Assembly (NCBI GenBank): GCA_964424785.1
Contig: CAYRKA010000001.1
Span: 33,416-97,415 of the forward strand
Length of the DNA stretch: 64,000 bases
Direction of reading: 5' to 3'
Origin: an uncultured Lachnospiraceae bacterium
Lineage (GTDB): Bacteria > Bacillota > Clostridia > Lachnospirales > Lachnospiraceae
Shown here: piece by piece, positions 21,308 to 60,658 of the stretch
Position numbering within the stretch: position 1 is the stretch's first letter
Layout: each line of letters begins with the position of its first letter
The notes under the pieces: model-generated
The model's input: the letters and a program-made list of their open reading frames with translations, nothing else
Databases searched by the model: none
What the model was told of the DNA's origin: nothing
Translations under genes and position numbers: made by a program

Positions 21308-21405
21308 TTTTATGCGACCCGCCACGGAGAAATATTGCTGCTGGCGCAGCACGCGGGCCGCGCAGCGGGCAGGCCGGATGGATTGTATCTTCCCTGCCCG
21401 GTTGA
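21308..21405 (+). repeat. Dispersed two-hairpin element, diverged full copy in the NlpC/P60 leader
   Basis: Starts tttatgcg; hairpin 1 tgctgc/gcagca; hairpin 2 cgggcagg/cctgcccg; aligns with the copy at 60565-60658 and shares 22/23 nt with the reverse complement of 47517-47539. Confidence 0.65.
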
Positions 21406-21438
21406 TCAGGATGTGCGTGGAGAACAAGGAGTATTAAA

Positions 21439-23190
21439 ATGCGCAGAAAGAGACTGATGACAGCCGCATTGTGTGCGGTGCTGGTGATGGCATCACCGGT
21501 ATGCGACAGCGCTTTTGGCAATATATCAGCTATACAAGCGGCAGACATAAAGCAGGATGAGGCCGCACAGGCCGAAGGAGAGCGTACGCTGAAGGCAGAG
21601 GAGTCATCTTCCGCTGCGGAAGCTGCCCAGGCGGATACATCAGCGCCAGAGGCCGAGACGAGCGCACCGGCGACAGAGGCGCCGCAGACGAGCGCACCGG
21701 CGACGGAGGCGCCGCAGACGAGCGCACCGGCGACGGAGGCGCCGCAGACGAGCGCACCGGCGACAGAGGCGCCGCAGACAAGCGCACCGGTGACAGAGAC
21801 GCCGCAGACAAGCGCACCGGCGACAGAGACCCAGACGGGCACGTCTTCCACAGAACCGTCAGGCGGGCAGGCGACAGAGACCCAGAGTGAGCTGCCGGAA
21901 GAGACGCAGACGACAGAGCTTTCGAGTGAGCATATGACGGAGCCGTCAGCGACGCCCTCTACAGAGATGGCCGGGACGGAGACACTGCCGTCCGATCCGG
22001 CACAGGCAGAGACGGCAGAGCCGGAATCAGAGACGGCAGATGCGACGGAGGCGGAGTCCGATTCGGAGAGTGAGGAAGAGTCGGAGTCGGAGACTTCCGA
22101 GTACGCGACAAACGAGGAGTTGATTGCACATCAGAATATTGTGATTCCCCCGGACATTCAATTGGAGTTCCGCTTTACGAAGGTGGAGGAACGTGCCGCG
22201 ATCGTCCGGAAGAAAGAGGGAGCCTCTGTGTACGAGGAGAATGCCGAGACGGCACGTGAAGTCGGGAGGCTTTCTTATTATGGTTTGTGCTATATCCTCG
22301 AAGATAAGGGCGACGGGTGGTATTATGTGGAGTCCAATAATGTCCGCGGTTTCATAAAGGCGGATGATGTCGTGACCGATGACGTTGCGCAGCGGATTAT
22401 TTCGGTGAAAGGCATGGAAGAGCTTCCGGCGGCGAGGCTGCTGATTGCGCGGAATGAAAACAATGCGTTTTGCCATACATACACCACGGTTCAGGAGGTT
22501 ATTGCAGAGAAGAAATACGCATTGGCCTCTAAGGATGCGGTGGAGATCCATGAGCAGAAGAAAGAGGATTCCCGTGTAACCGGGACACTTGGGAAGGATG
22601 CCCTGTGTTACATTCTCGCGGATGAAGAGCAGGAGTGGGTATTTGTCGAGTCCGGGGATGCGCGCGGCTTTGTGCGGAAGGATGAATTGACGACAGGAGC
22701 CGGGGCTTCCGAACTGGTCGCCGATCTCGGAGAGGATAATATGGCACTTGCTGAGGTCCAGGTCGAGCCGGAAGACAACAAGTCGTGCTACTATACGCTG
22801 ACGTCTGTCAAGGAAGCCTCTGAATCGGCGCACCTGCGCGAAGAGATTGTGAATTTTGCGCTGCAGTTCCTGGGGAATCCTTATGTCTGGGGCGGTACAA
22901 GCCTCACGAACGGGGCGGATTGCTCGGGATTTGTCCAGAGCGTCTACGCTCAATTCGGTTATTCGCTGCCACGGGTTGCCTGTGACCAGGCCTGCTACGG
23001 GATGCAGATCCCGATCGACCATGCGGAGCCTGGCGACCTGATTTTCTATGCGCGTAACGGCTATGTCTATCATGTCAGTATGTACATTGGCAATGGCCAG
23101 GTAATACATGCGGCAGGGAGAAAGGTCGGCATCATCACATCAGGCATCGCCGGGAATGCGGTCTGGGCGACGCGGGTTATTGCAGATTAG
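21439..23190 (+). CDS. Secreted NlpC/P60 (C40) cell-wall peptidase with SH3-like domains and a T/S/P/E-rich N-terminal linker
   Basis: Signal peptide; C-terminal QFLGNPYVWGG..ADCSGFV..HV..Y.G.G.VIHA catalytic Cys-His-His. Confidence 0.9.
   Translation: MRRKRLMTAALCAVLVMASPVCDSAFGNISAIQAADIKQDEAAQAEGERTLKAEESSSAAEAAQADTSAPEAETSAPATEAPQTSAPATEAPQTSAPATEAPQTSAPATEAPQTSAPVTETPQTSAPATETQTGTSSTEPSGGQATETQSELPEETQTTELSSEHMTEPSATPSTEMAGTETLPSDPAQAETAEPESETADATEAESDSESEEESESETSEYATNEELIAHQNIVIPPDIQLEFRFTKVEERAAIVRKKEGASVYEENAETAREVGRLSYYGLCYILEDKGDGWYYVESNNVRGFIKADDVVTDDVAQRIISVKGMEELPAARLLIARNENNAFCHTYTTVQEVIAEKKYALASKDAVEIHEQKKEDSRVTGTLGKDALCYILADEEQEWVFVESGDARGFVRKDELTTGAGASELVADLGEDNMALAEVQVEPEDNKSCYYTLTSVKEASESAHLREEIVNFALQFLGNPYVWGGTSLTNGADCSGFVQSVYAQFGYSLPRVACDQACYGMQIPIDHAEPGDLIFYARNGYVYHVSMYIGNGQVIHAAGRKVGIITSGIAGNAVWATRVIAD
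21658..21837 (+). repeat. In-frame tandem repeat, 6 x 30 bp (TSAPATEAPQ)
   Basis: acgagcgcaccggcgacagaggcgccgcag units at 21658, 21688, 21718, 21748, 21778, 21808. Confidence 0.95.
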
Positions 23191-23196
23191 GCTGTT

Positions 23197-24480
23197 TCAG
23201 CTGGCGTCCTGCACTTTGTCAGTGCCCGGTTTCGGGAGGAGCAGGCGCACTGTCTCGATTCGGTTGCCCGATATTTTTGTGACGGCCAATGTGATGCCGT
23301 CCTCTGTGTAGACGGTCTCACCCGCCGTTGGGAGATGATCCAGCTTCTCGATGATCAATCCGCCGATGGAGTCGTATTCCTCAGAGGAAAGCGCGAGGCC
23401 AAGCGCGTCGTTGATGTCGTCGAGCTTCACGGATCCTTCGATTGTATATTCGCGCTCGCCTGTTTTTTGGATCAGATCCTTTTCATCCTCATCATATTCA
23501 TCGCGGATCTCACCGACAATCTCTTCGAGCAGGTCCTCGAGGGAGACCATGCCGACAGACGCGCCGTACTCGTCAAGCACGATCGAGACGCTGACTGAAT
23601 TTTTCTGCATTTCCATCAGCAGCTCGGAGGTTTTTTTGAATTCATATGTGAAATATGGTTCATACATAACGTCGGTTACGTGGAATGTATCGGATCCCTT
23701 GCAGAAAAAGAAATCCTTGATGTTGAGGATGCCCGTGATGTTCGTACGGTCGCCCCGATAGACAGGGAGACGCGTATACTTCTGTTCCCGGAATACCTCT
23801 CCGACCTCTGCATATGTGGCGTCTTCGCTGATCATGACCATATCGGCGCGCGGCACCATGACGTCTTTGGCCTGGGAATCGCCGAAATCTACTACATTGT
23901 AAATCATCTGGCGTTCTTCCTTCTCGATAACCCCCTCTTTGTGGCTGACATCCACGATTGTGCGCAGCTCCCTCTCGGTCATGGTATTCAGCGGGCTGTC
24001 TGTATCAATGCGGAGCAGCTTCAGCAGGAAACGGCAGATTGCGTTGATGATAAAAATAACAGGCGTCATCAGCTTCATGAGAAACAGGATGATGGAGGCA
24101 TAAGCCAGAGCCATCCGTTCGGAATTCACAGTCGCATATGTCTTGGGGGTGATCTCGCCGAAAACGAGGATAATAATCGTCAGGGCGGTGGTCGCAATAC
24201 CGACAGCACTGTTTCCGAGGAAGCGGATCGCGAGCGCTGTGGCGAGCGCTGCGGAAAAATTGTTGACGATGTTATTGCCGATCAGGATCGTACTGAGCAT
24301 TTTTGAGGAATGTCCGGTGGCTCTAAGGACAAGCTTCGCACGTTTGTCCCCATCGTCTGCGAGCGCCTGCATACGGATTTTGTTGACTGTGGTGAGCGAT
24401 GTCTCCGCCGAGGAAAAAAAGGCGGAGAGCACAACAAGGATCAACAGTATGAATAGTTGTATGGCGTCATCCGAGGCCAA
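23197..24480 (-). CDS. HlyC/CorC family protein (CNNM-CBS-CBS-CorC)
   Basis: SAFFSSAETSL, VFGEITPK, DVMVPR, YTRLPVY, LDEYG, EDLLEEIVGEIRDE; TTG start with GAAGGAG SD. Confidence 0.92.
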   Translation of the reverse strand: MASDDAIQLFILLILVVLSAFFSSAETSLTTVNKIRMQALADDGDKRAKLVLRATGHSSKMLSTILIGNNIVNNFSAALATALAIRFLGNSAVGIATTALTIIILVFGEITPKTYATVNSERMALAYASIILFLMKLMTPVIFIINAICRFLLKLLRIDTDSPLNTMTERELRTIVDVSHKEGVIEKEERQMIYNVVDFGDSQAKDVMVPRADMVMISEDATYAEVGEVFREQKYTRLPVYRGDRTNITGILNIKDFFFCKGSDTFHVTDVMYEPYFTYEFKKTSELLMEMQKNSVSVSIVLDEYGASVGMVSLEDLLEEIVGEIRDEYDEDEKDLIQKTGEREYTIEGSVKLDDINDALGLALSSEEYDSIGGLIIEKLDHLPTAGETVYTEDGITLAVTKISGNRIETVRLLLPKPGTDKVQDAS

Positions 24481-24711
24481 AAGATCATCTCCTTCTACAT
24501 GGTTTCGTTCGGTCGTTATTGAGAATGATACAATAAAACAATATGAAATGCAATGTAAAGTTGCGAATATTGGGCGGATTGTCGGGGCGCGAAGCGCGGA
24601 ACCATCCGGAAATCAGCTTTTGACGGGTCAATCATTTTATGATTATTCAGGTTCCTGCAGCCGGTGGCGCATATTTTGCGCCGCGCCGCATATGTATGGA
24701 AAGGAGGGGGG

Positions 24712-25092
24712 ATGCTTGTGGGATGGTTGATGGGGAAAAAGGGCGTGGCCGGGAACCTGATAAAAGCGCTGGCCCTGGCATTTCTGACGACGGTTGTGCT
24801 GCTGCTGGTCCTGGCATTTCTGCTGCTGAAGCTGCGGCTGGACGTCGGCAAAACGGAAATCGGGATCCTTGTCACGTATGTGCTGTCATGCTTTGCGGGA
24901 GGCCGGCACTGCGGACGCATGGCGGGCCGGAAACGCTTCCTGTGGGGCGCAGCTGTGGGAATGCTCTATTTCCTGATTCTGCTCCTGGTTTCCGGCATGA
25001 GCGACCGGGCATTCCGGTCGGGCCTGACGGAAAGCCTTGCAGCATTCGCGCTCTGTGCCGGGGCAGGAATGCTGGGCGGGATGGTGTCGTGA
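24712..25092 (+). CDS. TIGR04086 family small membrane protein
   Basis: About 126 aa, 4 TM helices, GxxxGRKRFLWG and terminal GMLGGMVS pattern; start uncertain (24712 or 24730). Confidence 0.7.
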   Translation: MLVGWLMGKKGVAGNLIKALALAFLTTVVLLLVLAFLLLKLRLDVGKTEIGILVTYVLSCFAGGRHCGRMAGRKRFLWGAAVGMLYFLILLLVSGMSDRAFRSGLTESLAAFALCAGAGMLGGMVS

Positions 25093-25093
25093 A

Positions 25094-25155
25094 CACACAG
25101 GGCGGCAAGAGGATTTCAGCGGCGGAGCCGCTGCCGCCCTGGCGTGAGCGGTATA
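25094..25155 (+). repeat. Dispersed two-hairpin element, left-module copy
   Basis: cacacagggcggcaagaggatttcagcggcggagccgctgccgccctggcg closely matches the reverse complement of 57183-57233. Confidence 0.8.
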
Positions 25156-25329
25156 AATTGGGGCTTTTCATCGGTGATTTTTTGTGATATAGTAAAAATG
25201 TGTCACATACATGAATAATAGAACTGCGGCATTGTGCAATCCGGACAGGCTGCAGATTTTCTGTCGGTTCAGACATTCTTCCCGGTAAATTATTTGCCAG
25301 AGTATAATTTGTGAAATGAAGAGGTGTAT

Positions 25330-27087
25330 ATGAGAGAAAAATATGAGTCCCTGTCACTTGCAGTTCTGAAAGAACTTGCCAAAGCAAGAGGCATGAGGGG
25401 AGTTTCGACGTTCAAAAAAAGCAGGTTAATTGAAGCAATGCTTGAGCAGGATGAAAAGGACCGGCAGTCAGAAAATGCCGGGACATTGCGGCAGGCAGGC
25501 AACGGAGCGGAGGCACATCAGCCAGAACATGGGAATACGGCGGAGCCCCGTGATTATGACGGGGCGGTGAGAGAGCGCGCTGCATGGCGCGCGGAGAGCG
25601 GCGAAGCAGCGCCTCAGACGGAGACAAAGGGCGCAGCGGGACCCGGGGAGGGCAGCAAAGCAGCGCCACAGGCAGCAGGCGTACAGGCTGAACAGAATCC
25701 AAGACGGCGCAGCACAGGTGTGAGACAACCGCAGGGAAGCAGGCGGACGGCCGGAAGAGATTATCCAAATGGCAGTGCGCAGCAGGAGCAAGGTGCATTT
25801 TCGGAATCCGCCACGGAATACAGGGGTACGCCGGCGCGCCAGCGTCAGATGCGTCCTGCCAGTGATGAGGCGCATGTGCGCAGGACAGGCGCGGACGGCA
25901 GCGATACGCGGCAGCGCCCCGAGAACATAGACAGGCCGCCCGCGGAGCTTTCACAGCTTGACAGCGGCCAGACCGTCTCAGGTATCCTGGAGGTAATGTC
26001 GGACGGCTATGGCTTCATCAGAAGCGCGAATTACCTGCCGGGCGACAATGATGTCTATGTCTCTCCGTCCCAGATACGCCGCTTCAATCTGAAGACAGGG
26101 GATATTATTTGCGGCAACACACGTATCAAGTCACAGCAGGAGAAGTTCAGCGCGCTCTTATATCTGAAGACGATCAACGACAAGACTCCCTCCGAATCAA
26201 TGAAACGATGGAATTTTGAGGATATGACACCGGTCTTCCCGAACGAGCGGATGCGTATGGAGCGCGGCTCGCGGGCGTTGGCGATGAGGATTGTCGACCT
26301 GTTTTCCCCGATTGGAAAGGGACAGCGCGGTATGATTGTTTCGCCGCCGAAAGCAGGCAAGACGACACTTTTGAAGGATATCGCCCGGTCGATTCTGGAG
26401 AATGATCCGAATATGAAGCTCCTGATCCTGCTGATCGATGAGCGGCCCGAGGAGGTCACGGATATCAAGGAGGCGATCTGCGGCGAGAATGTCGAGGTCA
26501 TCTATTCTACGTTTGATGAACTGCCGGAGCATCACAAGCGCGTGTCGGAGATGGTTATCGAGCGAGCGAAGCGCCTGGTTGAGCAGAATGAGGATGTGAC
26601 GATCCTGCTTGACAGCATTACGCGCCTTGCAAGGGCATACAACCTGACGGTCCCGCCCAGCGGCCGCACGCTCTCCGGCGGACTTGACCCGGCTGCGCTG
26701 CATATGCCGAAACGCTTCTTCGGCGCGGCCCGCAAAATGCGCGAGGGCGGCAGCCTCACGATCCTTGCCACAGCGCTTGTCGACACCGGCAGCAAGATGG
26801 ACGACGTCGTCTATGAGGAATTCAAGGGTACCGGCAACATGGAGCTCGTGCTTGACCGCAAGCTCTCCGAGAAGCGTGTTTTCCCGGCGATCGATATCCC
26901 GAAGTCAGGGACGAGGCGGGAGGACCTGCTGCTTGACCGCGATGAACAGGAAGCGATGTACATCATGCGCCGGGCACTCAATGGCATGAAGTCGGACGAG
27001 GCTGTCGAGAATATCCTGAATACGTTCGTCCATACGAGGGACAACCACGAGCTCGTACAAAGGGTCCGCAGACAGAAATATGTGTAA
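25330..27087 (+). CDS. rho: Transcription termination factor Rho with long low-complexity N-terminal insertion
   Basis: Rho_N helix (LKELAKARG), GILEV..DGYGFIR RNA-binding domain, PIGKGQR, PPKAGKT, LLDSITRLARAYN, FKGTGNMEL. Confidence 0.97.
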   Translation: MREKYESLSLAVLKELAKARGMRGVSTFKKSRLIEAMLEQDEKDRQSENAGTLRQAGNGAEAHQPEHGNTAEPRDYDGAVRERAAWRAESGEAAPQTETKGAAGPGEGSKAAPQAAGVQAEQNPRRRSTGVRQPQGSRRTAGRDYPNGSAQQEQGAFSESATEYRGTPARQRQMRPASDEAHVRRTGADGSDTRQRPENIDRPPAELSQLDSGQTVSGILEVMSDGYGFIRSANYLPGDNDVYVSPSQIRRFNLKTGDIICGNTRIKSQQEKFSALLYLKTINDKTPSESMKRWNFEDMTPVFPNERMRMERGSRALAMRIVDLFSPIGKGQRGMIVSPPKAGKTTLLKDIARSILENDPNMKLLILLIDERPEEVTDIKEAICGENVEVIYSTFDELPEHHKRVSEMVIERAKRLVEQNEDVTILLDSITRLARAYNLTVPPSGRTLSGGLDPAALHMPKRFFGAARKMREGGSLTILATALVDTGSKMDDVVYEEFKGTGNMELVLDRKLSEKRVFPAIDIPKSGTRREDLLLDRDEQEAMYIMRRALNGMKSDEAVENILNTFVHTRDNHELVQRVRRQKYV

Positions 27088-32407: not shown

Positions 32408-32513
32408 TTGTGGATGAGCCTGCCTGCGTGGCGCGGGGATATCGATGAAAGGACAGAGAATGGCCGCCTGTACGTATCTATGCGTATGGCGGCCTCACTG
32501 TCCGGGAGGAAAC

Positions 32514-34238
32514 ATGGAGCACAAGTGGAAGCGGCTTATCGGTTACTATAAGCCGTACAGGAAATTATTCATTACAGATCTGTTTTTTGCGATCCTCGGG
32601 GCAGCGGTCACGCTTGTGATCCCGTTGATCGTGCGTTATATCACGACGAATGTAATCGTCTTGCCGGGAGAGGAGGCGTTTCAGAGTATCCTGAGGCTGG
32701 GTGTGCTGATGGTCGGCCTTGTTGCGGTTGAATGCTTCTGCAATTTTTACATTGCCTATTTCGGGCATTTGATGGGCGCGAAAATGGAACATGATATGCG
32801 CAATGAGATTTTTGCGCATTATCAGCGCCTCTCGTTCGCGTTCTATGACAACCAGAAGGTCGGGCAGCTCCTGTCGCGTATTACGTCGGATCTGTTTGAT
32901 ATCAGCGAGCTGCTGCATCACGGACCGGAGGACGTCGTGATCTCCCTGATCAAGTTTATCGGGTCGTTTGTCATTCTGTGCAGCATCAACACGGCGCTGA
33001 CCATGACGGCATTTGCGTTCCTGCCTGTGATTGTGCTGTACGCGTTCTGGCTCAACCGCAAAATGAAGCGGGCGTTCAAGCAGAACCGTGCGCGCATCGC
33101 CGACATCAACAGCCAGATTGAGGACAGCCTCTCCGGCATCCGCGCGGTCAAATCGTTTTCCAATGAAGCGATTGAAATGGAAAAGTTCCGTGAGGGGAAC
33201 GAGCGGTTTGTCGAGTCGAAGCGCAGGAGCTACTGGTATATGGGCTGGTACAATTCTGGGCTCGGCGCGCTGACGACGCTTGTGACGATCGCTGTACTTG
33301 TGGTGGGTGCGGCCCTGATCACAGGGGCACATATGGAGGTGTCCGATCTTGTCACATTCCTGCTCTACATCAACAATTTCACGGAGCCGGTGAAGAAGCT
33401 GATCAGCTTTACCGAGCAGTTCCAGAATGGTTATACCGGGTATGAACGTTTCCTTGAGATTATGGATGTGCAGCCGGATATCGAGGATGCGCCGGACGCC
33501 ATCGCGTTGGAGAAGGCAAAGGGCGACATCCGGTTCGACAATGTCTCATTTAAATATGAAGAAAACCAGGACACGGTGCTCAGCCATATCGACCTTCATG
33601 TGAATGCGGGCGATTATCTCGCGATCGTCGGCTCGTCCGGCGGCGGCAAGACAACACTGTGCAGCCTGATCCCACGTTTCTACGATGTGGACGGCGGGAG
33701 GATCCTGCTCGACGGTATCGACATCCGCAGGATCCGGATTGAAGATCTGAGGAAACAGATCGGTATTGTGCAGCAGGACGTCTATCTGTTCGCGGAGAAT
33801 ATTATGGAGAATATCCGTTATGGCAGGCCGGATGCGACGGATGAGGAGGTCATTGCGGCGGCGCGGCTGGCGAACGCGCATGAATTTATCTCGCAGCTGC
33901 CGGACGGATACCTGACCGACATCGGACAGCGCGGCGTCAAGCTCTCCGGCGGGCAGAAGCAGCGCATTTCGATTGCACGTGTATTTTTGAAAAATCCGGC
34001 AATCCTGATCTTTGATGAGGCGACGTCGGCGCTCGACAATGAGAGCGAGAAGATTGTGCAGAAATCGATGGAGTCGCTCGCGAAGGGCCGGACGACGTTT
34101 GTGATCGCGCACCGCCTGTCGACGATCCGCAACGCGCAGAAGATCCTTGTGCTGACGGAGAACGGGATCGAGGAGCAGGGGACGCATGACGAGCTGCTGG
34201 CGCTGGACGGGATCTACGCGAAGCTGTATCGCGGGTGA
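32514..34238 (+). CDS. ABC half-transporter (fused permease/ATPase, exporter type)
   Basis: N-terminal TM domain; [34 protein letters not shown]. Confidence 0.92.
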   Translation: MEHKWKRLIGYYKPYRKLFITDLFFAILGAAVTLVIPLIVRYITTNVIVLPGEEAFQSILRLGVLMVGLVAVECFCNFYIAYFGHLMGAKMEHDMRNEIFAHYQRLSFAFYDNQKVGQLLSRITSDLFDISELLHHGPEDVVISLIKFIGSFVILCSINTALTMTAFAFLPVIVLYAFWLNRKMKRAFKQNRARIADINSQIEDSLSGIRAVKSFSNEAIEMEKFREGNERFVESKRRSYWYMGWYNSGLGALTTLVTIAVLVVGAALITGAHMEVSDLVTFLLYINNFTEPVKKLISFTEQFQNGYTGYERFLEIMDVQPDIEDAPDAIALEKAKGDIRFDNVSFKYEENQDTVLSHIDLHVNAGDYLAIVGSSGGGKTTLCSLIPRFYDVDGGRILLDGIDIRRIRIEDLRKQIGIVQQDVYLFAENIMENIRYGRPDATDEEVIAAARLANAHEFISQLPDGYLTDIGQRGVKLSGGQKQRISIARVFLKNPAILIFDEATSALDNESEKIVQKSMESLAKGRTTFVIAHRLSTIRNAQKILVLTENGIEEQGTHDELLALDGIYAKLYRG

Positions 34239-34264
34239 AGCGGGAAGGCCGCCAAAGGCAACAC

Positions 34265-34319
34265 GCCCTGGCGCGGGCGGACAGGGTCGATGATAGGGCC
34301 GATGACTCTCCCCTATCCG
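34265..34319 (+). repeat. Dispersed two-hairpin element, right-module copy with an internal 12-nt duplication
   Basis: gccctggcgcgggcggacagggtcgatga[tagggccgatga]ctctcccctatccg. Confidence 0.8.
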
Positions 34320-34347
34320 GTTGGATCAGACAGTGAGGAGCAGAATT

Positions 34348-42503: not shown

Positions 42504-43274
42504 ATGTTTCAGAATGTAATTGTAAAGAGGCCATGCACCAGGATCACAGACGGCATCACTTCGGCCCCGGAGCTCGGCAAGCCGGATTATGAGCTTGCGC
42601 TCCGCCAGCACGACGCCTACATCAGGGCGCTTGAGAGCTGCGGCGTGCAGGTGACGGTGCTCCCGGCAGATGAGGCTTTCCCGGACTCCTGCTTTGTGGA
42701 GGATACGGCGGTGCTGACACGCAAATGCGCGGTTATCACGAACCCAGGCGCCCCGTCCCGCAACAAAGAGGCAGAGGCCATGATCCCGGTGATTAGACAA
42801 TTCTACAGTGAGGACTGCATCGAGTACATCAAGGCTCCGGGTACGCTCGAGGGCGGCGATGTCATGATGGTGGGTGACCACTTCTACGTGGGGCGCTCCG
42901 CGCGCACGAACGGGGAGGGCATCCGCCAGTTCATCGCGATCCTGGGGAAATACGGCCTGACCGGCTCGGAGGTGCCGCTCGAGAAAGTGCTTCACCTGAA
43001 GACCGGCGTCAACTACATCGAGAACAACAATATGCTCGTATCCGGCGAGTTCATCGACAAGCCGGACTTCGCGAAATATAATAAGTACGTGATCCCGGAG
43101 GACGAAGCGTACGCGGCAAACTGCATCTGGGTGAACGGCCATGTGATCGTCCCGGCGGGCTTTCCGAAGGTGGAGCAGATCGTGAAGGATGCGGGCTACG
43201 ACGTGATCCTCGTGGATACGTCGGAGTACCGCAAGATAGACGGGGGCCTGAGCTGCCTGAGCCTGAGATTCTAG
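42504..43274 (+). CDS. Dimethylarginine dimethylaminohydrolase (DDAH, amidinotransferase superfamily)
   Basis: FPDSCFVEDTAV, LEGGD, HLKTG, GGLSCLSLRF: intact Asp/His/Cys triad as in bacterial DDAH. Confidence 0.88.
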   Translation: MFQNVIVKRPCTRITDGITSAPELGKPDYELALRQHDAYIRALESCGVQVTVLPADEAFPDSCFVEDTAVLTRKCAVITNPGAPSRNKEAEAMIPVIRQFYSEDCIEYIKAPGTLEGGDVMMVGDHFYVGRSARTNGEGIRQFIAILGKYGLTGSEVPLEKVLHLKTGVNYIENNNMLVSGEFIDKPDFAKYNKYVIPEDEAYAANCIWVNGHVIVPAGFPKVEQIVKDAGYDVILVDTSEYRKIDGGLSCLSLRF

Positions 43275-43319
43275 TACATCGGAAATTAGATAACTGGTCA
43301 GATGACGCAGGATATATTT

Positions 43320-43387
43320 CTGAGAGCACCTATCAAAAAACGGAGGCATAGCGGGCTACGCTGAGTATTTTTGATAGGTGCTCTCAG
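43320..43387. repeat. Perfect 20-bp inverted repeat with a 28-nt spacer
   Basis: ctgagagcacctatcaaaaa (43320-43339) / tttttgataggtgctctcag (43368-43387). Confidence 0.9.
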
Positions 43388-43493
43388 GGAAATAGGCAAG
43401 TCATATGTGCCAGTTATTTTGTTTTCGATGTACTAGGATATTCTGTAGCCTGGGCGGCAGGGCCGTGGGCAGAGGACAGACAGGAGAGGGATC

Positions 43494-44864: not shown

Positions 44865-44893
44865 CGGGCGGATAGGATCGATCTCCCCTGCCG
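44865..44893 (+). repeat. Dispersed two-hairpin element, truncated right module
   Basis: cgggcggataggatcgatctcccctgccg, immediately after the stop codon. Confidence 0.6.
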
Positions 44894-47499: not shown

Positions 47500-47516
47500 C
47501 TGATCAGTAGCTTGTT

Positions 47517-47552
47517 TGCTGCGTCAGCAGCAATATTTCATTCATGGGCCGA
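47517..47552 (-). repeat. Dispersed two-hairpin element, left-hairpin copy
   Basis: Reverse complement gaaatattgctgctgacgcagca is 22/23 identical to 21329-21351. Confidence 0.7.
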
Positions 47553-47594
47553 CGCTGCAGGGAATGACGAAAGCCGTTTCCTGTAGCTGTGCCT

Positions 47595-48107: not shown

Positions 48108-48249
48108 GAGGATTCCTCCTTAAGTATTATGTATGTTGTACCAGACGGATGCTGCCTCTGTGAAACGCGCTGGATTGAATATATGCGTATACCCAGGGGC
48201 ATTCGTGAATACATGCCCTGCGGGCGGGCGGACACTTCGTGTCCGATAA

Positions 48250-48278
48250 AGTATACCATTTTCGGCAATTTTAGTAAA
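48250..48278 (-). promoter_or_regulatory. Sigma70 promoter of the DUF4364 gene
   Basis: TTTACT-N17-TATACT with extended TG on the minus strand. Confidence 0.55.
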
Positions 48279-50895: not shown

Positions 50896-51117
50896 ATGCG
50901 CCGTACAGACAGAGAAGTAAAGGAATTCAAGGATATCGTATCGATTATGGAAAAATGCGATGTATGCAGGATTGCCCTGAATAATAACGGTTATCCGTAT
51001 ATTTTGCCGCTCAATTTTGGGATGTGTGTACAGGACGGCAGGATAGAACTGTATTTCCACGGGGCTATGTCTGGTATGAAGTATGATCTGATTGAAAAGG
51101 ATGCCCTTTACTACTGA
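50896..51117 (+). pseudogene. Truncated pyridoxamine 5'-phosphate oxidase/NimA-like gene (N-terminal half only)
   Basis: MRRTDRE..CRIAL...YPYILPLNFG..LYFHGA..G.KYDLI, ending abruptly in the 3' end of the opposing Rpn gene; good SD. Confidence 0.8.
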
Positions 51118-52139
51118 ACATTTTGAGGAAGACCGAGCCATCCATTCACTGTCTCTACGGTATAGCCTACTCCTTGCGCAATCTTTTCTACATCAATACC
51201 GAGCAAATATAAGTTTCTGGCTACCTCCTGGGATTTCTTTAAGGTACCCTTTTGTATGCCTTTTTGCAGTCCCCTTCGTTCCCCTGTCAATTCAGCTTTC
51301 ATTTTCATTTCCTGTATTGCCTGGCACATATCAACCATTTCCTCGCTTTCGCTATATTTTAAATCGGTGTGTGTGATTACCTTAATCACATCTGCGGCTC
51401 TTCGTTCTACTTCATGAAATCGTGTCTCTTTAGAATGCAGTATCTTGCTTAGATTTTCCTCATTTTTAGAATATTTGATGAAAAGCAGAACCTCCCGCAG
51501 GCTGGACCGGAATTTCATAATATCAGCTTCTTTCATATGCGCCGGGGCAATCAAATGAACCTGATAATTGTTGAGATATTGGAATAGCGCCGGGTCTTTT
51601 ATATCCATCATGTCAAACAGACTCAGTGGACCATCCCATCTATCCGCGCCAAAATAGAGAATGACCGTCACGGAAGGAATAAGGCGGTCGTTTTTCCAGA
51701 AACCGCTCAGATATTCCCCAGCGTTTGGTCTCCTCTGCATTGCTGAAGAATCTGATTCCGCCTGTCCTCTGTTTTGTTTCATCGCCCTGCGATGTGACCG
51801 CGCAGCTGCTTCAACCTGTCCGGCATATTCGATCGCATCGTATAGATTATTCTTTACTGCAGCCGCATAATGGATCTCGGACTGGGCTTCGATTCCATAA
51901 AGGATGTATTCAAATTTCCCGTCCGTCATGGCGGCATAAAGCTTCTGTACATCCCGGAATTTCTGAATCGGTATGGTTGTCTGGTCTGCTCCGTAAGGAA
52001 GGGCGATCTCGGTTGGATCCCGCTGTGCCAGATTCTCAGGATGAATAATCTGCGCTCCATCATGAATGTAATAATTAAACACATCGGCAAATATGCCTGC
52101 ATCTGATATGTAATCCTTTGTGATAGTATCCGCTCTCAA
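51111..52139 (-). mobile_element. Rpn/PD-(D/E)XK-family recombination-promoting nuclease or putative transposase
   Basis: FADVFN, RDVQK, ILYGIEAQSEIHY...YDAIEY, P.VTVILYFG..WDGP.SL, C-terminal G.QKG repeats; TTG start with AGGAAGGA SD; about 43% GC in a 120-nt sample; no terminal IRs seen. Confidence 0.8.
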
Positions 52140-55707: not shown

Positions 55708-55724
55708 AATTTCCCCTCCTGGAT

Positions 55725-55778: not shown

Positions 55779-55975
55779 TAATAAATTCAAATGAAAAACG
55801 GAATGGGCTGCAGGGTTGGAGCTTGACTGACAGATGGCTTTATGGTAAAGTTTATTATATTTCGTGGGTCGATCCACGGAGAATTGAAACGCTCAGAGAT
55901 GCTCTGGCAGTCTGATTGCCGGGATATGCTGGCAGGAGGACCGCCGGGTGGCTGAAGCAGGGAGGGCCAGACAGC

Positions 55976-57139
55976 TTGCGTGAACTTGAATTGTACCTTC
56001 ATATCCCGTTTTGTGTCAGGAAATGCGCCTACTGTGATTTCCTGTCGGCTCCGGCCGGACGTGACGTGCAGCAGACGTATGTCGGGGCGCTGCAGCGGGA
56101 GATACGCGCGTTTGCCGGGAGGGCGGCGCAGGAATATTTCGTCACGACCGTCTTTTTCGGCGGCGGCACGCCGTCGGTTCTTCTGGCGTCAGAGATTGCC
56201 GCACTTATGGATGTGATGCGGGAAGGGTTTGTGTTTGCATCGGACGCGGAGGTCACGATTGAGTGCAATCCAGGCACGGCGGATCGGGAGAAGCTGCGGG
56301 TTTACCGTGACGCCGGGATCAACCGCCTGAGCCTCGGCCTGCAGTCCGCGGACGACAAGGAGCTCGCGATGCTTGGGCGCATCCACACATGGGCGGATTT
56401 CCTGAGGACGTATGAGGACGCGCGTGCGGCAGGGTTCGATAACATCAATGTGGATCTGATGTCTGCGCTTCCGGGGCAGACGGTTTCATCGTGGGAGCGC
56501 ACGCTGCGAAAAGTGCTTGCGCTCTCGCCGGAGCATATTTCCGCGTATAGTCTGATCATTGAGGAGGGTACGCCGTTCTACGAAAGATATCATGAGGATG
56601 ATGAGATCCGCAGGGATGGCGGCGTACCACACTTCCTGCCGTCGGAGGATGCGGAGCGCAGGATGTACGAGATGACGGAGGAGCTGCTCGGTGAGGCCGG
56701 GCTGTGCCGTTATGAGATCTCGAATTACGCGCGTCAGGATCGCGAATGCCGCCACAATATCGGATACTGGCGTGGGACCGAGTATATGGGATTTGGGCTT
56801 GGCGCGTCGTCGCTGGTAGACTGCAGTTCCGGGTATGCGCGTTTTCGCAACCCGGATGACCTGACGGCATATTTGCGCGGTGATTTTTCAGGGCGGGAAA
56901 TGCAGATGCTCACTGTGCAGGACCGCATGGAGGAATTCATGTTCCTCGGCCTGCGGCTGACGGACGGGATATCCGAGGCGGAATTTGCGCGCCGCTTTGG
57001 CTGCCCGATTGATAAAATATATGGGAAGGTATTGGAGGAGCAGCAGGGGCTTGGACTTCTCGCACGCCATGGGGGACGCGTCTTTCTGACGCCGCGCGGC
57101 ATTGATCTGAGCAATCTGGTTATGGCGGAGTTTCTGTAA
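55976..57139 (+). CDS. hemW: Radical SAM heme chaperone HemW (HemN-like)
   Basis: LYLHIPFCVRKCAYCDF, FFGGGTPS, NRLSLGLQS, HISAYSLIIEEGT, YEISNYA, CRHNIGYW; TTG start after GGAGGG. Confidence 0.92.
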   Translation: MRELELYLHIPFCVRKCAYCDFLSAPAGRDVQQTYVGALQREIRAFAGRAAQEYFVTTVFFGGGTPSVLLASEIAALMDVMREGFVFASDAEVTIECNPGTADREKLRVYRDAGINRLSLGLQSADDKELAMLGRIHTWADFLRTYEDARAAGFDNINVDLMSALPGQTVSSWERTLRKVLALSPEHISAYSLIIEEGTPFYERYHEDDEIRRDGGVPHFLPSEDAERRMYEMTEELLGEAGLCRYEISNYARQDRECRHNIGYWRGTEYMGFGLGASSLVDCSSGYARFRNPDDLTAYLRGDFSGREMQMLTVQDRMEEFMFLGLRLTDGISEAEFARRFGCPIDKIYGKVLEEQQGLGLLARHGGRVFLTPRGIDLSNLVMAEFL

Positions 57140-57143
57140 TGGC

Positions 57144-57240
57144 GCAATCGGATAGGGGAGATTTATCGACCCTATCCGCCGCGCCAGGGCGGCAGCGGCT
57201 TTGCCGCTGAAATTTCCTTGCCGACCTGTGTGCATAAAAA
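57144..57240 (-). repeat. Dispersed two-hairpin element, full reference copy (97 nt)
   Basis: Minus strand tttttatgcacacaggtcggcaaggaaatttcagcggcaaagccgctgccgccctggcgcggcggatagggtcgataaatctcccctatccgattgc; begins at the T-tract of the queT terminator. Confidence 0.85.
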
Positions 57241-57274
57241 ACAGCCCGGAGTCTGGAAACTGACCGGCTCCGGG
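57236..57274 (-). terminator. Intrinsic terminator after queT
   Basis: cccggag/ctccggg stem followed by ttttt on the minus strand. Confidence 0.6.
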
Positions 57275-57312
57275 TCGATTTTGCGTTTAGAGCAGAAAGT
57301 GTATGGATCCGT

Positions 57313-57804
57313 TTATAATGCCGCATTTCTGAAGAGGGACCCGCGGTACCGCTCCAGGGCGAACAGGAGGATCATTCCCATGACTCCGCAGGAGAGGACC
57401 TCTCCGATGCCGACTGTCAGCATCATAAAAGGAATGGGGAGCGGGACACCGTAGCCGTAGTGCAGGACAAATGGCACAATCAGCGCATTTGCCACAATCG
57501 GCGGAACCGGGGCGAGAAAACGGCGCTTCCTCAGCAGATAAGTGCCTGTCGCGGCAATCAGGGTGGCGAGGCTGCCGAAAATAATGTCAAGCGGAATCGA
57601 ACCGCCGAGCATATTGCCGATCAGACACCCGATAAAAAGACCTGGGATCGCTGCCGGTGTGAAATAGGGCAGGACCGTGAGTGCTTCTGAGACACGCAGC
57701 TGTACCTCGCCGAACCCGAAGGGGGCAAATGCGACGGTCAGCACGACGTAGATGGCAGCGATAGCTGCACCCTGGACAAGGAACGTTACTCTTTCATTTC
57801 TCAT
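57313..57804 (-). CDS. queT: QueT family queuosine-precursor transporter
   Basis: AAIAAIYVVLT...F.FG.VQLRVSEAL..LP.F.P.AIPGL.IGCLI.N; preQ1 riboswitch upstream. Confidence 0.9.
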   Translation of the reverse strand: MRNERVTFLVQGAAIAAIYVVLTVAFAPFGFGEVQLRVSEALTVLPYFTPAAIPGLFIGCLIGNMLGGSIPLDIIFGSLATLIAATGTYLLRKRRFLAPVPPIVANALIVPFVLHYGYGVPLPIPFMMLTVGIGEVLSCGVMGMILLFALERYRGSLFRNAAL

Positions 57805-57814
57805 ATTCTGTTTT

Positions 57815-57858
57815 CTCCTTTAGTTTTGTTTTACGTGTGGAAGGTCTCGAACACACGC
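57815..57858 (-). ncRNA. PreQ1-I riboswitch (translational, SD sequestering)
   Basis: gCGTGTG-ttcgagaccttc-CACACG-taaaacaaaactaaaGGAG: P1 stem, UUCG loop, A-rich tail and SD overlap, upstream of queT. Confidence 0.9.
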
Positions 57859-57970
57859 GCCTAAGCGGACATAAAAAGCTTCCAGTGGATGCTCTTATGT
57901 CATCCCGTAACGCCGGGAAACGGCTGCAAGCCCTGTCAGACCTTATTTTTGGGGGCTTGCAACGTGGATT

Positions 57971-57999
57971 AGTGTAGCATGAACCAGGTGGCAGGTCAA
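57971..57999 (-). promoter_or_regulatory. Sigma70 promoter of queT
   Basis: TTGACC-N17-TACACT with extended TG. Confidence 0.7.
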
Positions 58000-58035
58000 G
58001 AAAAAATCGGATCAAAATCGCTTCGCGATAGCTGC

Positions 58036-58944
58036 TCACACACTCTCTTCTTCCCTCGATTCGATCTGGCGTGCCGCGAAATTGTAGATCTTCTGATAAT
58101 CCTCCGCCGAATAGTGGACGCCGTCAATCGGCATGACCTGATCGATCATCAGGAGCGTGAAGCTGTCGATGTATGCGTCCGGGAAGGATTCCTTCAGGTG
58201 ACTGTTAAAGTCAGCAATCTGTTCGTTGGAAATGTTGGAGCAGAGTGTCGGCTCGATCGGGTTCACGGACAGGAAATAGAAATGTGTGTCCGGGTAAGCC
58301 GCGAGAAGCTCCGTGTACAGCGCCAGATAATTTGCAAGATTGTCGTAGTCATTGACCCCGAAGTTCAGCACGACCGGCGCGTCAGGCTGTGCCGCAATCG
58401 CGTCCGCAGTCAGTGCAAGCCCCTCATCCAGGAACCAGTTGTAGCCCTCGCCATCCTTGCCGATGTAAGTGTCAGTGGTATCAAGCGCACGCTCCATGCC
58501 GAGTGTCCTCGAATCGCCGACCCAGATGATCGGGAATGATACATCATATACCTCGAGCGGAACGAACTCTGTCTGTGCCTCTGTGCCGGACGTCTCAGGC
58601 TCTGCCTGAGGCGCATCCCCCTTCGCGTCAACATCCTTGCCTGTATCCGAAGCTCCGCTCCTGTCTGCGCCGGTGCCCCTGCCTGCTGCCGGAGTATCAG
58701 TCCCGTTCCTGTCAGTTTCCTCGTCCGTAGCCTGCGTTTCTGCCTCATCGCCTGTCTTCGGCCCGGATTCCGTGTCTGCCTGATACAATGCCCGGATAGC
58801 TGCGTCCGCCGCAATGGCCGCCTGCGTGTCGTCGTCGGAAAACGCGTCGTTATGGAACTGCCACGCGAGAAAAACTGCAAGCGCTGCCAGCAGGATAAGT
58901 GCAATGACAGAGCATACGATGCCAAGTATAGTCCCTTTTTTCAT
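58036..58944 (-). CDS. Membrane-anchored SGNH/GDSL-like hydrolase with a low-complexity linker
   Basis: N-terminal TM helix; WVGDSR, FGVND, LSVNP, DGVHY; start trimmed to MKKGTIL. Confidence 0.78.
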   Translation of the reverse strand: MKKGTILGIVCSVIALILLAALAVFLAWQFHNDAFSDDDTQAAIAADAAIRALYQADTESGPKTGDEAETQATDEETDRNGTDTPAAGRGTGADRSGASDTGKDVDAKGDAPQAEPETSGTEAQTEFVPLEVYDVSFPIIWVGDSRTLGMERALDTTDTYIGKDGEGYNWFLDEGLALTADAIAAQPDAPVVLNFGVNDYDNLANYLALYTELLAAYPDTHFYFLSVNPIEPTLCSNISNEQIADFNSHLKESFPDAYIDSFTLLMIDQVMPIDGVHYSAEDYQKIYNFAARQIESREEESV

Positions 58945-59186
58945 ACAGATCTCTCCAAATCCCTGCCCCCATATCCGTCGGGAAAGCAGATTTGCACTTA
59001 TCGTATAACAGACCGGGCAAAAAGTCAATCAAAGCGGACGAAAATTGCCCGCCTGAACTTTAACTATAGTAAACGACACAAATAATGTCGTTTCCTATAA
59101 CTGTATGTGCTTGTGTCACAGACGTAAAAACAAATGTCCGCTTCGGACGGGAAATTGTATTTTTTTTGTACAGCGAACAAAAGTCC

Positions 59187-59215
59187 TTGCAATACGGACA
59201 AAAGAGGTCTAAAAT
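59187..59215 (+). promoter_or_regulatory. Sigma70 promoter of the liv operon
   Basis: TTGCAA-N17-TAAAAT. Confidence 0.6.
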
Positions 59216-59288
59216 AGCCTTATGCGTTTAGTACTTTATCATGATGAAGTATTCAAACAGTAAAAAATATGAGACAGGAGGAAATGTT

Positions 59289-60449
59289 ATGAAAAAATTA
59301 GCAGCACTTGCAGTATGCACGGCGATGTGCCTGGCCAGCGTGATGAGCGTATCGGCGGCAGACACGGTAAAGATCGGCGTATTTGAGCCGGCATCAGGTG
59401 ATAACGGCGCGGGCGGCAAGCAGGAAACGCTTGGTATCCAGTACGCGAACAGTGTAGCCCCGACCGTGGAGATCGGCGGCACAGAGTACAATGTTGAGCT
59501 TGTGGTGGTGGACAATGAGTCCTCCGCAGAGAAAGCTCCGACGGCTGCGTCCCAGCTTGTCAGCGAGGGCGTTTCTGTAGTGCTTGGTACATACGGCTCC
59601 GGCGCGGCGATCGCGGCAGCTCCGACCTTTGAGCAGGCGGGCGTCCCGGCGATCGGCGTGACATGCACGAACCCGCAGGTGACAGAGGGCAATCCGCATT
59701 ACTTCCGTATCTGTTTCCTCGACCCGTTCCAGGGCACGGTCCTTGCGAACTTCGCGACAGAGAATTTCGAGGCGAAGAAAGCTTACGTGCTGACGAAGCT
59801 CGGCGACGACTATTCGGCTGGCCTTGGCTTCTACTTCTCAGAGGCGTTCAAGGAGCTGGGCGGTGAAGTGATCGAGGATACGTTCCCGGAGGGCAACGCA
59901 GACTTTACTTCCTATATTACTACGGCGATCAATGAGGGCGTTGACGTTATCTTCGCACCGACGTCGACAGAGGCGGCTCAGCTCATCATTGATACGGCAG
60001 CTTCGCAGGGTGCACAGATGCCTCTTCTGGCCGGCGATACATGGGATTCCAACGTGATCCTGAGCGCTGCGGAGGGCAAGGATGTCCAGATTTATGTTAC
60101 GACCTTCTATCAGGAGGGCGGCAACGAGGAATTTGATAATGGCATCAAGGAATGGATCAATGGCGACAGCACGAACCTGGCAAACAACGGCGGCAACGAT
60201 ACGATCGCGGCAGTGACGGCGATGGGATATGACGCATACTTTACAGCGCTTGAGGCTCTGAAGAATGCAGGCTCGACCGATCCGGCCGCAGTGACAGAGG
60301 CGCTTCCGGCCACTACTTACACAGGCGTTACAGGTGCGATCGCATTCGATGATGTGAACGGCGACGCCGTCCGTGATACCGCGTATGTGAAAGTGGCAAA
60401 TACCGAGACCGCTGCGTGGGATTTCGTGGCGGAGCAGGGTGTCAACTGA
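59289..60449 (+). CDS. Branched-chain amino-acid ABC transporter substrate-binding protein (LivJ/LivK-like)
   Basis: VKIGVFEP.SG, VVDNES, LGTYGSG, NPHYFRICFLDPFQG, GYDAY, TGAIAFD. Confidence 0.9.
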   Translation: MKKLAALAVCTAMCLASVMSVSAADTVKIGVFEPASGDNGAGGKQETLGIQYANSVAPTVEIGGTEYNVELVVVDNESSAEKAPTAASQLVSEGVSVVLGTYGSGAAIAAAPTFEQAGVPAIGVTCTNPQVTEGNPHYFRICFLDPFQGTVLANFATENFEAKKAYVLTKLGDDYSAGLGFYFSEAFKELGGEVIEDTFPEGNADFTSYITTAINEGVDVIFAPTSTEAAQLIIDTAASQGAQMPLLAGDTWDSNVILSAAEGKDVQIYVTTFYQEGGNEEFDNGIKEWINGDSTNLANNGGNDTIAAVTAMGYDAYFTALEALKNAGSTDPAAVTEALPATTYTGVTGAIAFDDVNGDAVRDTAYVKVANTETAAWDFVAEQGVN

Positions 60450-60530
60450 TAGGGAAAGAGTGGCGTTGCTGCCGCGCAGCCGTTATCAATTAAGAAGCGT
60501 GCCGCTGTGAACGGCAGCAAGCGTAGTCAG

Positions 60531-60568
60531 AGGTTGCCGCAGGGAGGAATGCCCTGCGGCAACCTTTT
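60531..60568 (+). terminator. 14-bp hairpin with T-tract after the SBP gene
   Basis: aggttgccgcaggg-aggaatg-ccctgcggcaacct-ttt. Confidence 0.7.
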
Positions 60569-60658
60569 ATGCGCAGGCTCACAAGAGGTATTTTGCTGCT
60601 TACGCAGTATGCGAGCCGCGCGGGCGGATAGGGTCGGTAAACTCCCCTATCCGATCGC
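60565..60658 (+). repeat. Dispersed two-hairpin element, full copy (94 nt)
   Basis: ttttatgcgcaggctcacaagaggtattttgctgcttacgcagtatgcgagccgcgcgggcggatagggtcggtaaactcccctatccgatcgc; begins at a terminator T-tract. Confidence 0.85.

Follow-up and report, generated by a model that had tools for sequence, protein, structure and literature searches.

Much is known about small structured repeats in Proteobacteria (REP/RAYT) and in a handful of pathogenic Firmicutes. To our knowledge, no elements apart from group IIC introns follow a terminator target rule. These introns insert just after a terminator-like hairpin and a run of T's, in the sense orientation (PMC1702495). REP sequences and bacterial interspersed mosaic elements (BIMEs) are presumed to be read in a folded, single-stranded state (PMC2817692, PMC3116915), and bcr1, a group A bcr repeat of the Bacillus cereus group, is ~100 to 155 bp long and consists of two "cruciform-like" stem-loops with compensatory changes but no transposase of its own (PMC3184786, PMC6542083). 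Here, we describe a dispersed two-hairpin repeat in a 64,000-nucleotide stretch (the window) of an uncultured Lachnospiraceae bacterium (GenBank assembly GCA_964424785.1, contig CAYRKA010000001.1, positions 33,416 to 97,415). The repeat unit is non-coding, 86 to 92 bp long, and composed of two unlike hairpin modules. Our data make it probable that these repeats form a small non-autonomous, lineage-restricted, terminator-targeting mobile DNA element family that is moved in trans, a family that has apparently not been described so far.

Pattern scans added full copies from 12 species-representative Lachnospiraceae or "Clostridiales" metagenome-assembled genomes (MAGs; gut samples of rabbit, rodent, and other origin), from two metagenome contigs, and from one ENA assembly; in all, the evidence base came to ~35 copies, most of them in MAGs. 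In 22 of 27 copies, folding of the upstream 50 nt revealed a strong hairpin that ended 4 to 13 nt before the GCGC at which the element starts, with a T-rich gap in between that usually read ..TTTTAT up to the junction, and all 22 shared the orientation of that upstream terminator. This insertion behind intrinsic terminators is the defining property of the family and was absent from the sequence-only reading with which the analysis began. A simple terminator scanner missed the long-loop livJ and queT hairpins; fold energies were used instead. The upstream 50 nt folded at a mean of −19.0 kcal/mol, as against −9.7 kcal/mol for 50-mers drawn at random from the same loci (Mann-Whitney P, 2e-8); the downstream flank, at −9.6 kcal/mol, was unremarkable (paired Wilcoxon P, 5e-5). 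Thus, the association is one-sided and orientation-specific. Moreover, the upstream hairpins were all unlike in sequence and were present in empty alleles as well, which indicates that they are host terminators lying outside the element. At the junction itself, 20 of 21 full copies followed ..TTAT, and some copies followed TTTTT, TAAC, or GATT. One copy (L002) lay directly 3′ of the terminator in a SAM-riboswitch expression platform and before the metK ribosome-binding site, that is, in the metK 5′ untranslated region (UTR), and another (L001) lay behind the terminator of a tRNA operon; these two cases indicate that the terminator is targeted and not merely the end of a gene. Furthermore, three independent copies (in the window, in L176/L177, and in L304) were located in ABC operons, each behind the internal terminator that separates the binding-protein gene from the permease gene. 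Once inserted, the element would ride in read-through transcripts as an extra stable structure, and it is tolerated in the metK 5′ UTR and within ABC operons. Although GC skew is positive throughout the window, two copies (57146-57233 and 47517-47552) lie behind minus-strand genes and are themselves on the minus strand, so that orientation tracks the local terminator and not the replication fork. Five of the 27 copies had no upstream hairpin, and four copies (L070, L010b, L024b, and L120b) depart from the rule, being placed against the 5′ end of a divergent gene or antisense within an operon. Roughly one copy in four faces convergent genes, and in a few cases the copy is antisense to the genes on either side.

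Mobility, which the sequence-only reading had put forward, was borne out by filled and empty orthologous sites at at least four loci, and relatives ~90% identical to the window carry copies elsewhere. The search for empty sites succeeded at livJ-livH, queT/hemW, and the copy at 25093, among others. Between livJ and livH, a 117-nt insert (60570-60686, made up of T60570, one full unit, and a degenerate second unit) is missing from contigs ~90% identical to the window that come from four public rodent-gut runs. These contigs join 60543 to 60687 via 24 nt (AAAATGGCCTGCGGCAGCCTTTTA), which supply the rest of the same terminator hairpin together with TTTTA. The insert lies between TTTTA and CGTTAACG, with both flanks intact and no target duplication. 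Among 80 orthologous livJ loci from GTDB species, only L176 and L177 were filled (82 to 83% amino acid identity); the five closest genomes (91 to 95%) were empty, as was L182, a close relative of L177. The queT/hemW spacer measured 95 nt in L294 to L296 (HemW, 89% identical) versus 173 nt in the window, and a contig from run X1 had 43 nt where the window has 112. In the empty allele, conservation of the queT terminator and ..TTCTTAT extends as far as the junction; L294 reads ..gggctgTTCTTAT.. there. For the copy at 25093, which consists of the first module only, L302 has a precise empty site (gtgtcgTGAgcgg); CGTGA stands on both sides of this copy (25088-25092 and 25143-25147), a duplication of 3 to 5 nt. 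At the 21314 copy, L302 keeps the left junction TTTAT and has unrelated sequence in the slot. L003 is filled where L304 reads ..AAAAC-GC-TCCGCGTGG, and L304 is itself a carrier elsewhere, with a copy at 1398-1483 (69 bits) directly behind a terminator and TTTTTAT. Finally, a Logan short-read contig of the identical strain (L298, 2970-2997) ends 34 nt after hemW, inside the second module of the copy there, and this assembly break speaks in practical terms for multiple copies of the element in that genome. The proteins of the window were either not on record or located on a 3-kb contig that stops within the element.

Several observations concern the neighbourhoods of these sites. The two half-copies at 25093 and 34265 were considered as attL and attR of a 9-kb island, and this candidate was rejected: the interval holds rho, prmC, prfA, glmM, and an ABC transporter, and the 25093 copy has its own empty site in L302. 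Synteny between window 24664-25330 and L302:7678-8300, from a relative ~90% identical, ends just past the DUF3792 gene, near this copy; beyond the break, rho-prmC-prfA-glmM follow in the window, whereas L302 has a convergent gene for a DeoR regulator and pentose-phosphate genes. An unrelated insert of ~75 nt occupies the loop of the livJ terminator hairpin in L151 and L154 (spacer from ~3730), which are the closest relatives with a name ("Bacterium 1XD42-54" among them), and several livJ-livH spacers (L156 to L164) contain nested AAAGCCCGG..CCGGGCTTTT units.

Alignment of the copies revealed the anatomy of the unit. Its 5′ half reads GCGC, A, one strand of helix P1b, a loop C-A-(A/T)-G-G-A-(A/G)-T-T-T-T, the tip P2 (GCNGC-tetraloop-GCNGC), the complementary strand P1b′, and GCGC-GG; its 3′ half reads P3, CGG(A/G)(T/C)AGG..loop..CCT(A/G)(T/C)CCG, and then AT(T/C). 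Module 1 is a 17-bp two-part stem with invariant GCGC/GCGC feet, a bulged A, a variable P1b of 8 to 9 bp, a one-sided 11-nt loop, and the 5-bp P2, while module 2 is a hairpin of 9 to 10 bp after a GG linker, and the unit ends in ..CCGAT(T). RNAalifold independently predicted the same architecture. The purine loop A(A/T)GGA(R) is conserved on one strand only. The two hairpins of the sequence-only reading thus exist, but what it called hairpin 1 (cagcggc/gccgctg or tgctgc/gcagca) forms just the P2 end of a longer two-part stem, its GC linker contains the GCGC that pairs with the 5′ GCGC, and the TTTATGC that it took as the element start begins with TTTAT of the host target, as found in empty sites. 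The covariation that it claimed for the stems, in contrast, was confirmed and proved stronger than stated: pairing is kept despite sequence drift. In a MAFFT alignment that was not fitted to the structure, 90.6% of 572 cells were paired, and 13 of the 26 pairs of the full structure showed double-sided changes, in 60 cells; none of 500 shuffles matched the observed values, and sliding the partner by 1 to 3 columns as a control lowered pairing to 35 to 51%. For module 1 alone (30 sequences), double changes occurred in 12 of 17 pairs. The three full copies of the window carry three different P1b helices (GGCTC/GAGCC, CAGG.CGGC/GCCG.CCTG, and CCCGC/GCGGG), and single copies each fold alike as single-stranded DNA (ssDNA) with z scores of −2.9 to −4.3, except for the diverged 21314 copy (z, −1.4).

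Module 2 is exchangeable, and in some copies unrelated hairpins take its place, such as GAATGTGC/GCACATTC and AGTAAACG/CGTTTACT. Units occur singly, in direct tandems (L120, L149, and L009), or as module 1 alone (window 25093-25144 and the tail of the L009 array), and many apparently solo copies are trailed by a truncated second unit, such as the unit at 60657-60686. The L009 copy at 4041-4180 (−) has its P1b interrupted, in the 3′ strand, by a nested insertion of ~50 nt that contains a further hairpin (GGATGTCCA..TGGACATCC), and its module 2 shows a double compensatory change, CGAGTAGGGG/CCCCTACTCG. Two further features were considered and rejected. A hidden small open reading frame (ORF) running from ATG to TAA across the element is open in one copy (L010) and is broken in others by 1-nt or non-triplet indels, and a pseudoknot of the T-tract or the AAGGA loop with the loop of module 2, inspected by eye, paired inconsistently across subfamilies.

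Within the window, copies were sought with a covariance model (R1) run without filters over the 64 kb, a covariance model of module 1 only (R2), and an nhmmer profile built from the three claimed full copies. The resulting inventory comprises three full copies, two clear partials, one miniature variant, and two weak or doubtful fragments. nhmmer concurred with R1 on the full copies and picked up the four claimed partials with E values of 8e-7 to 0.06; R2 detected no additional copies in the window. The best-scoring copy, at 60571-60656 (+) between livJ and livH (R1 match 60567-60656, 91 bits, E value 1e-15; R2, 57 bits), has its module 1 at 60571-60621 (P1a GCGC/GCGC, bulged A, P1b GGCTC/GAGCC, internal loop, and P2 GCTGC-TTAC-GCAG), followed by the GG linker, the module 2 hairpin CGGATAGGG/CCCTATCCG, and 3′ GATC; as ssDNA it folds at −21.2 kcal/mol (z, −3.35). 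Reading of the sequence placed a degenerate, internally deleted second tandem unit directly after it, at 60657-60686 (+). The insertion target, 60532-60569 (+), is the host livJ terminator hairpin (60532-60564) with its T-tract TTTTA, and the upstream 50 nt fold at −30.3 kcal/mol. A full copy of a "type B" subfamily lies at 57146-57233 (−) between the convergent queT and hemW genes (R1 match 57146-57237, 70 bits, E value 1e-11); it reads GCACACAGG.., has the P2 CAGCGGC/GCCGCTG, and folds as ssDNA with a z score of −3.43. Its target, 57234-57277 (−), is the host queT terminator hairpin and TTTTTTAT, with an upstream fold of −17.1 kcal/mol. The third full copy, at 21314-21403 (+) between trkH and an NlpC/P60 gene, is diverged (R1 match 21310-21403, 47.5 bits, E value 2e-7; R2, 44 bits), and its P3 is altered on both arms (CGGGCAGG/CCTGCCCG).

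Among the smaller copies, 25093-25144 (+), at the stop codon of the DUF3792 gene, retains the P1/P2 hairpin of module 1 only (R1 match 25091-25176, 28 bits, E value 1e-3); it is 88% identical over 51 nt to 57182-57232 and folds as ssDNA with a z score of −4.28. Conversely, 34265-34322 (+) retains only the 3′ part, GCCCTGGCGCGGGCGG and module 2 with a 12-nt internal duplication and the end CCGGTT (R1 match 34236-34322, 24.5 bits, E value 5e-3; nhmmer, 8e-7), and it matches 57145-57176 at 88%. The miniature variant, at 48187-48248 (+), scored 20 bits with R1 (E value 0.03; ssDNA fold z, −2.9) and is laid out as TATGCG.., a short P1 (CAGGGGCAT/ATGCCCTG), the conserved GCGGGCGGGCGG, a short hairpin GGACAC/GTGTCC, and GATA. 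In a relative ~90% identical to the window, this variant (window 48197-48257) is tandemly duplicated, as contigs of runs X1 and X12 repeat 61 nt. The fragment at 47517-47552 (−) contains only the internal loop and P2 (R1 match 47507-47553, 13.8 bits, E value 0.58; R2, E value 0.064; nhmmer, E value 1e-3), with 23 nt at 96% identity to 21329-21351. A doubtful weak fragment at 44865-44893 (+) resembles module 2, CGGGCGGATAGGATCG..CCCCTGCCGG (nhmmer E value 2e-3; no covariance-model match), and is missing in relative L299, whose spacer there is unrelated. Thus, the three full copies first claimed were upheld by both R1 and nhmmer, whereas two of the four claimed partials are sound (25093-25144 and 34265-34322) and the other two are weak or doubtful. 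Two "decayed traces" at 5075-5120 and 32418-32449 gave no match at an E value of ≤10 (R1) or ≤5 (R2), and the original list had missed both the miniature variant and the degenerate unit at 60657-60686. As had been stated, all window copies are intergenic; seven of eight have the orientation of the upstream gene.

We searched the same DNA for a mobilising enzyme. The ~50 ORFs of the window are housekeeping genes: capsule/glycosyltransferase genes, glmS, clpX, sigA, trkAH, rho, prmC, prfA, glmM, ABC transporter genes, gpr, spoIIP, lepA, hemW, queT, and livJHMGF. The sole transposase-like ORF, 51111-52139 (−), encodes a 342-amino-acid YhgA/Rpn-like PD-(D/E)XK protein of the "Transposase_31" type (PF04754; E value 9e-6; 25.8 bits, with the cut-off at 21); no copies flank it. 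The earlier statement that no cognate transposase is present here holds, with the exception of this ORF. Pfam revealed no RAYT in the window, and none was found near the ~35 copies. In the window and in the DNA fetched for 20 element-bearing loci, neither TnpA/TnpB beside or between copies nor a full-length insertion sequence (IS) with matching ends was found; Rfam gave no match to an IS605-orfB or omega-RNA family, and no reverse transcriptase (RT) gene lay near any copy. The affiliation with REP/BIME or IS200/IS605 (HUH) elements suggested by the sequence-only reading was not established, since the GTAG/CGTC tag is lacking, no RAYT, TnpA, or TnpB is found near the ~35 copies, and orientation is not linked to replication. 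The window also contains other repeats. At 43268-43439, in the spacer of DDAH/ADI-like and CmpB-like permease genes, nested inverted repeats (30-nt arms 112 nt apart around 27-nt arms 28 nt apart) form a large, AT-rich, cruciform-like structure that has no relation to the element. In-frame tandem coding repeats occur at 21626-21886, in an NlpC/P60-SH3 cell-wall hydrolase gene (30-nt period, ~7 units), and at 7590-7947, at the start of a LytR-CpsA-Psr gene (39-nt period).

The proposal of a lineage-specific dispersed repeat family was supported, with the family confined to a narrow clade of gut Lachnospiraceae. Only 2 of 29 pattern matches in a metagenome scan were true copies, which argues that the family is narrow. 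In carrier loci, non-seed copies occurred at ~1 per 19 kb, and five significant copies were present in the 64-kb window; as an extrapolation only, ~1 copy per 13 to 19 kb would amount to 150 to 250 copies per 3-Mb genome, in comparison to the "hundreds" suggested earlier. Rfam 15 yielded nothing relevant, with no matches at the gathering threshold in the window, no relevant ones in 18 loci, and only chance-level matches at an E value of ≤10 for two copies. blastn against phages and plasmids revealed no copies, all 63 pattern matches in IMG/VR viral contigs were chance by nhmmer, and literature searches found no such repeat described for Lachnospiraceae. The public runs share at most 7% of words with the source genome, and the metatranscriptome contigs come from a relative without the insert; one metatranscriptome contig, 87 nt long, corresponds to the 5′ half of a copy and may be DNA carry-over. 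Other palindromic families occupy the same post-terminator slots in related genomes. A GATATAGGAAA..TTTCCTATATC family follows ..CTTTAT in L155 (3725-3754) and stands directly after the element in L009 (4014-4040), and a TGTCATAGGAA..TCCTATGACA family occurs at L304:7256-7282 and just upstream of the element in L003 (~2060-2095, −). Together with the nested AAAGCCCGG..CCGGGCTTTT units of the livJ-livH spacers, these families hint at a repertoire that is mosaic in the manner of BIMEs, and perhaps at one insertion mechanism common to them.

In the mechanism that we favour, the units, which insert precisely and immediately 3′ of the T-tract (TTTA/TTAT) of a pre-existing terminator and in its orientation, would be moved in trans by an enzyme presumably encoded elsewhere in the genome. 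This enzyme would read the element as a folded single strand with its hairpins, by way of shape, conserved feet, and loop, and would also read a target consisting of a hairpin and then a T-tract. The target may become accessible when extruded, or when a transcription complex that pauses or terminates exposes it on the non-template strand; this strand would present exactly that target in the observed orientation. Among known enzymes, an HUH-type single-strand transposase is the best, though unproven, guess. Features in line with HUH transposition are the lack of terminal inverted repeats, the hairpin ends, strand specificity, and insertion 3′ of a short T-rich motif; the unlike end hairpins, the left hairpin at the junction itself, and the replication-independent orientation depart from IS608-type rules. 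We regard as rather unlikely the more particular idea of an undescribed mobilisation system in which module 1, with its GCGC feet, bulged A, and AAGGA loop, is the folded single-strand donor, the 3′ edge of the T-tract is the target, perhaps on the non-template strand exposed by RNA polymerase, and transposition is coupled to termination instead of replication; the same machinery may serve the other post-terminator families (GATATAGGAAA.. and TGTCATAGGAA..). Several points weigh against a terminator-targeting element moved in trans. All-against-all BLASTP of the ORFs from the 20 element-bearing loci showed that only the syntenic liv genes recur. Copies on both strands under a uniformly positive GC skew are contrary to the fork-coupled insertion of IS200/IS605 elements, and the left hairpin starts at the junction, with no room for an IS608-style guide segment. 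At two sites, right junctions are less clean than left ones, and the evidence base consists of ~35 copies, for the most part from MAGs. In addition, the kept pairing in diverged copies and the one-strand AAGGA loop could reflect a host-level function, in RNA or protein binding, instead of transposition competence.

Such a function is the core of an alternative that we consider possible but unlikely, namely, a cis-acting RNA module in read-through transcripts that serves as an mRNA 3′- or 5′-end stabiliser, a back-up insulator, or a docking site for a protein or ribosome via the A(A/T)GGA loop. This loop resembles a Shine-Dalgarno or CsrA motif, the stems covary around a purine loop conserved on one strand, orientation is shared with the terminator in 22 of 27 copies and with the upstream gene in seven of eight window copies, and the metK 5′ UTR and ABC operons tolerate copies; analogous B. 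cereus bcr elements are transcribed within UTRs (PMC3446304). However, most transcripts would end before reaching an element located downstream of a terminator, module 2 can be replaced by unrelated hairpins, about one-quarter of the copies face convergent genes with a few antisense to both neighbours, and presence or absence among close relatives marks each site as dispensable. The 87-nt metatranscriptome contig would fit an RNA module as well, but it is possibly carried-over DNA. The mismatch statistics bear on this question directly, as an RNA selected on the element strand should give G·U well above A·C. Of 657 base-pair cells in 26 distinct copies, 601 were Watson-Crick, 15 were G·U, and 25 were A·C; the stems are thus kept almost entirely by Watson-Crick compensation. 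The two mismatch classes are similar and slightly reversed, which is what random transitions would yield if the structure has to pair as DNA, whichever the strand, and lends no support to the "RNA-functional" option of the sequence-only reading. Because copies also sit behind terminators, lack a conserved promoter (sequence conservation stops exactly at the element boundaries), and are dispensable at each site, the data point to hairpins that act at the DNA level and are recognised during mobilisation. A retro-mobile origin, either as a miniature group IIC derivative or as an RNA copied by RT template switching onto U-tract 3′ ends, would account for the position and sense orientation behind terminators; the 3′ ..GAT fits the intron 3′ AY, and the 5′ GCGCA is loosely like GUGYG. 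Nevertheless, Rfam detected no group II or other ribozyme in the window or 18 loci, 90 nt is too short for domain I or domain V, no copy has an RT gene nearby, and the two precise junctions at livJ-livH are hard to obtain by template switching with illegitimate recombination, so that we see little probability in this origin. Still further from likely are independent multicopy trans-acting small RNA genes or chance GC-rich palindromes, for which only the stable predicted folds and the intergenic location speak: small RNA genes are at odds with the missing promoter, conservation that stops at the element ends, a terminator as the 5′ neighbour, and the lack of an Rfam match, while chance is excluded by E values down to 1e-15 and by recurrence in 12 other genomes.

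If a terminator-targeting element moved in trans is indeed what these copies represent, they offer a clean natural case of terminator-directed insertion by a 90-bp element. Since only IIC introns are known to have such a target, the enzyme and the way in which it reads a hairpin and T-tract are worth finding, and a hairpin- and terminator-specific recombinase, if true, would be a possible tool for site-directed insertion. Lachnospiraceae are a dominant family of the mammalian gut, and the element matters for their genomics in two ways. Contigs break at copies, and copies in operons or behind riboswitches could be mistaken for regulatory RNAs; on the other hand, insertion sites vary between ~90%-identical genomes and can serve as strain-level markers.

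Among described systems, bcr1 shares with the element a place among Firmicute intergenic repeats, two independent stem-loops, strain-variable sites, an association with TTTAT, and the lack of an own transposase (PMC3184786, PMC6542083). They differ in that bcr1 has a 5-bp TTTAT direct repeat on both sides, whereas the element has TTTA/TTAT on the 5′ side only and no duplication at the clean empty site; moreover, the element is GC-rich and belongs to another host clade, and a strict position behind terminators is not reported for bcr1, with which the element was compared by published description. REP, BIME, and REPIN sequences are likewise extragenic, GC-rich, imperfect palindromes in mosaic or tandem arrangement, often 3′ of genes, persistent, and lineage-specific (PMC2817692, PMC3116915). 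However, the element consensus lacks the GTAG/CGTC tag (PMC3733652) on either strand and has the conserved feet GCGC/GCGC and CGG/CCG instead; its unit is 86 to 92 bp with two unlike modules, compared to a single imperfect palindrome of 20 to 40 bp in REP; its tandems are direct and not alternating; and its hosts are Firmicutes, whereas those of REP are mainly Proteobacteria. Palindrome-associated elements (PATEs) of the IS200/IS605 type resemble it in having no terminal inverted repeats (TIRs) and a hairpin at each end, and they insert strand-specifically, 3′ of a short T-rich motif and with no duplication of the target. On this last point the copies give a mixed picture: most full copies follow ..TTAT, empty sites keep TTTA/TTAT, and livJ-livH has no target-site duplication (TSD), but some copies follow TTTTT, TAAC, or GATT, and the module-1 copy at 25093 has a duplication of 3 to 5 nt. 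In contrast to PATEs, the end hairpins of the element are unlike, the left one abuts the junction, and orientation follows the terminator and not replication.

With classical miniature inverted-repeat transposable elements, the family has in common its short, non-coding, multicopy nature, presence/absence polymorphism between relatives, and the lack of a conserved ORF, but its 5′ GCGCAG and 3′ CCGATT are not inverted repeats, and the clean empty site has no TSD. The SPRITE, BOX, and RUP repeats of Streptococcus pneumoniae are also small structured Firmicute repeats, enriched 3′ of genes, restricted to a species, and served by a transposase in trans or by one not identified (PMC3049150). BOX and RUP, unlike the element, have TIRs and TSDs, and SPRITE is AT-rich and itself terminator-like (an 18-bp stem with a U-rich tract), whereas the element docks behind existing terminators (PMC3049150). 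Integron attC sites are comparable in that structure is conserved over sequence, with conserved end boxes, an extrahelical base, a variable terminal structure, and recognition of a folded single strand; the element consensus, however, has no R″/R′ boxes (RYYYAAC/GTTRRRY), no cassette array or integrase accompanies it, and its neighbours are syntenic housekeeping genes. Finally, group IIC introns are at least 700 nt long, whereas the element has ~90 nt and neither a ribozyme nor an RT, and yet the target rule is common to both.

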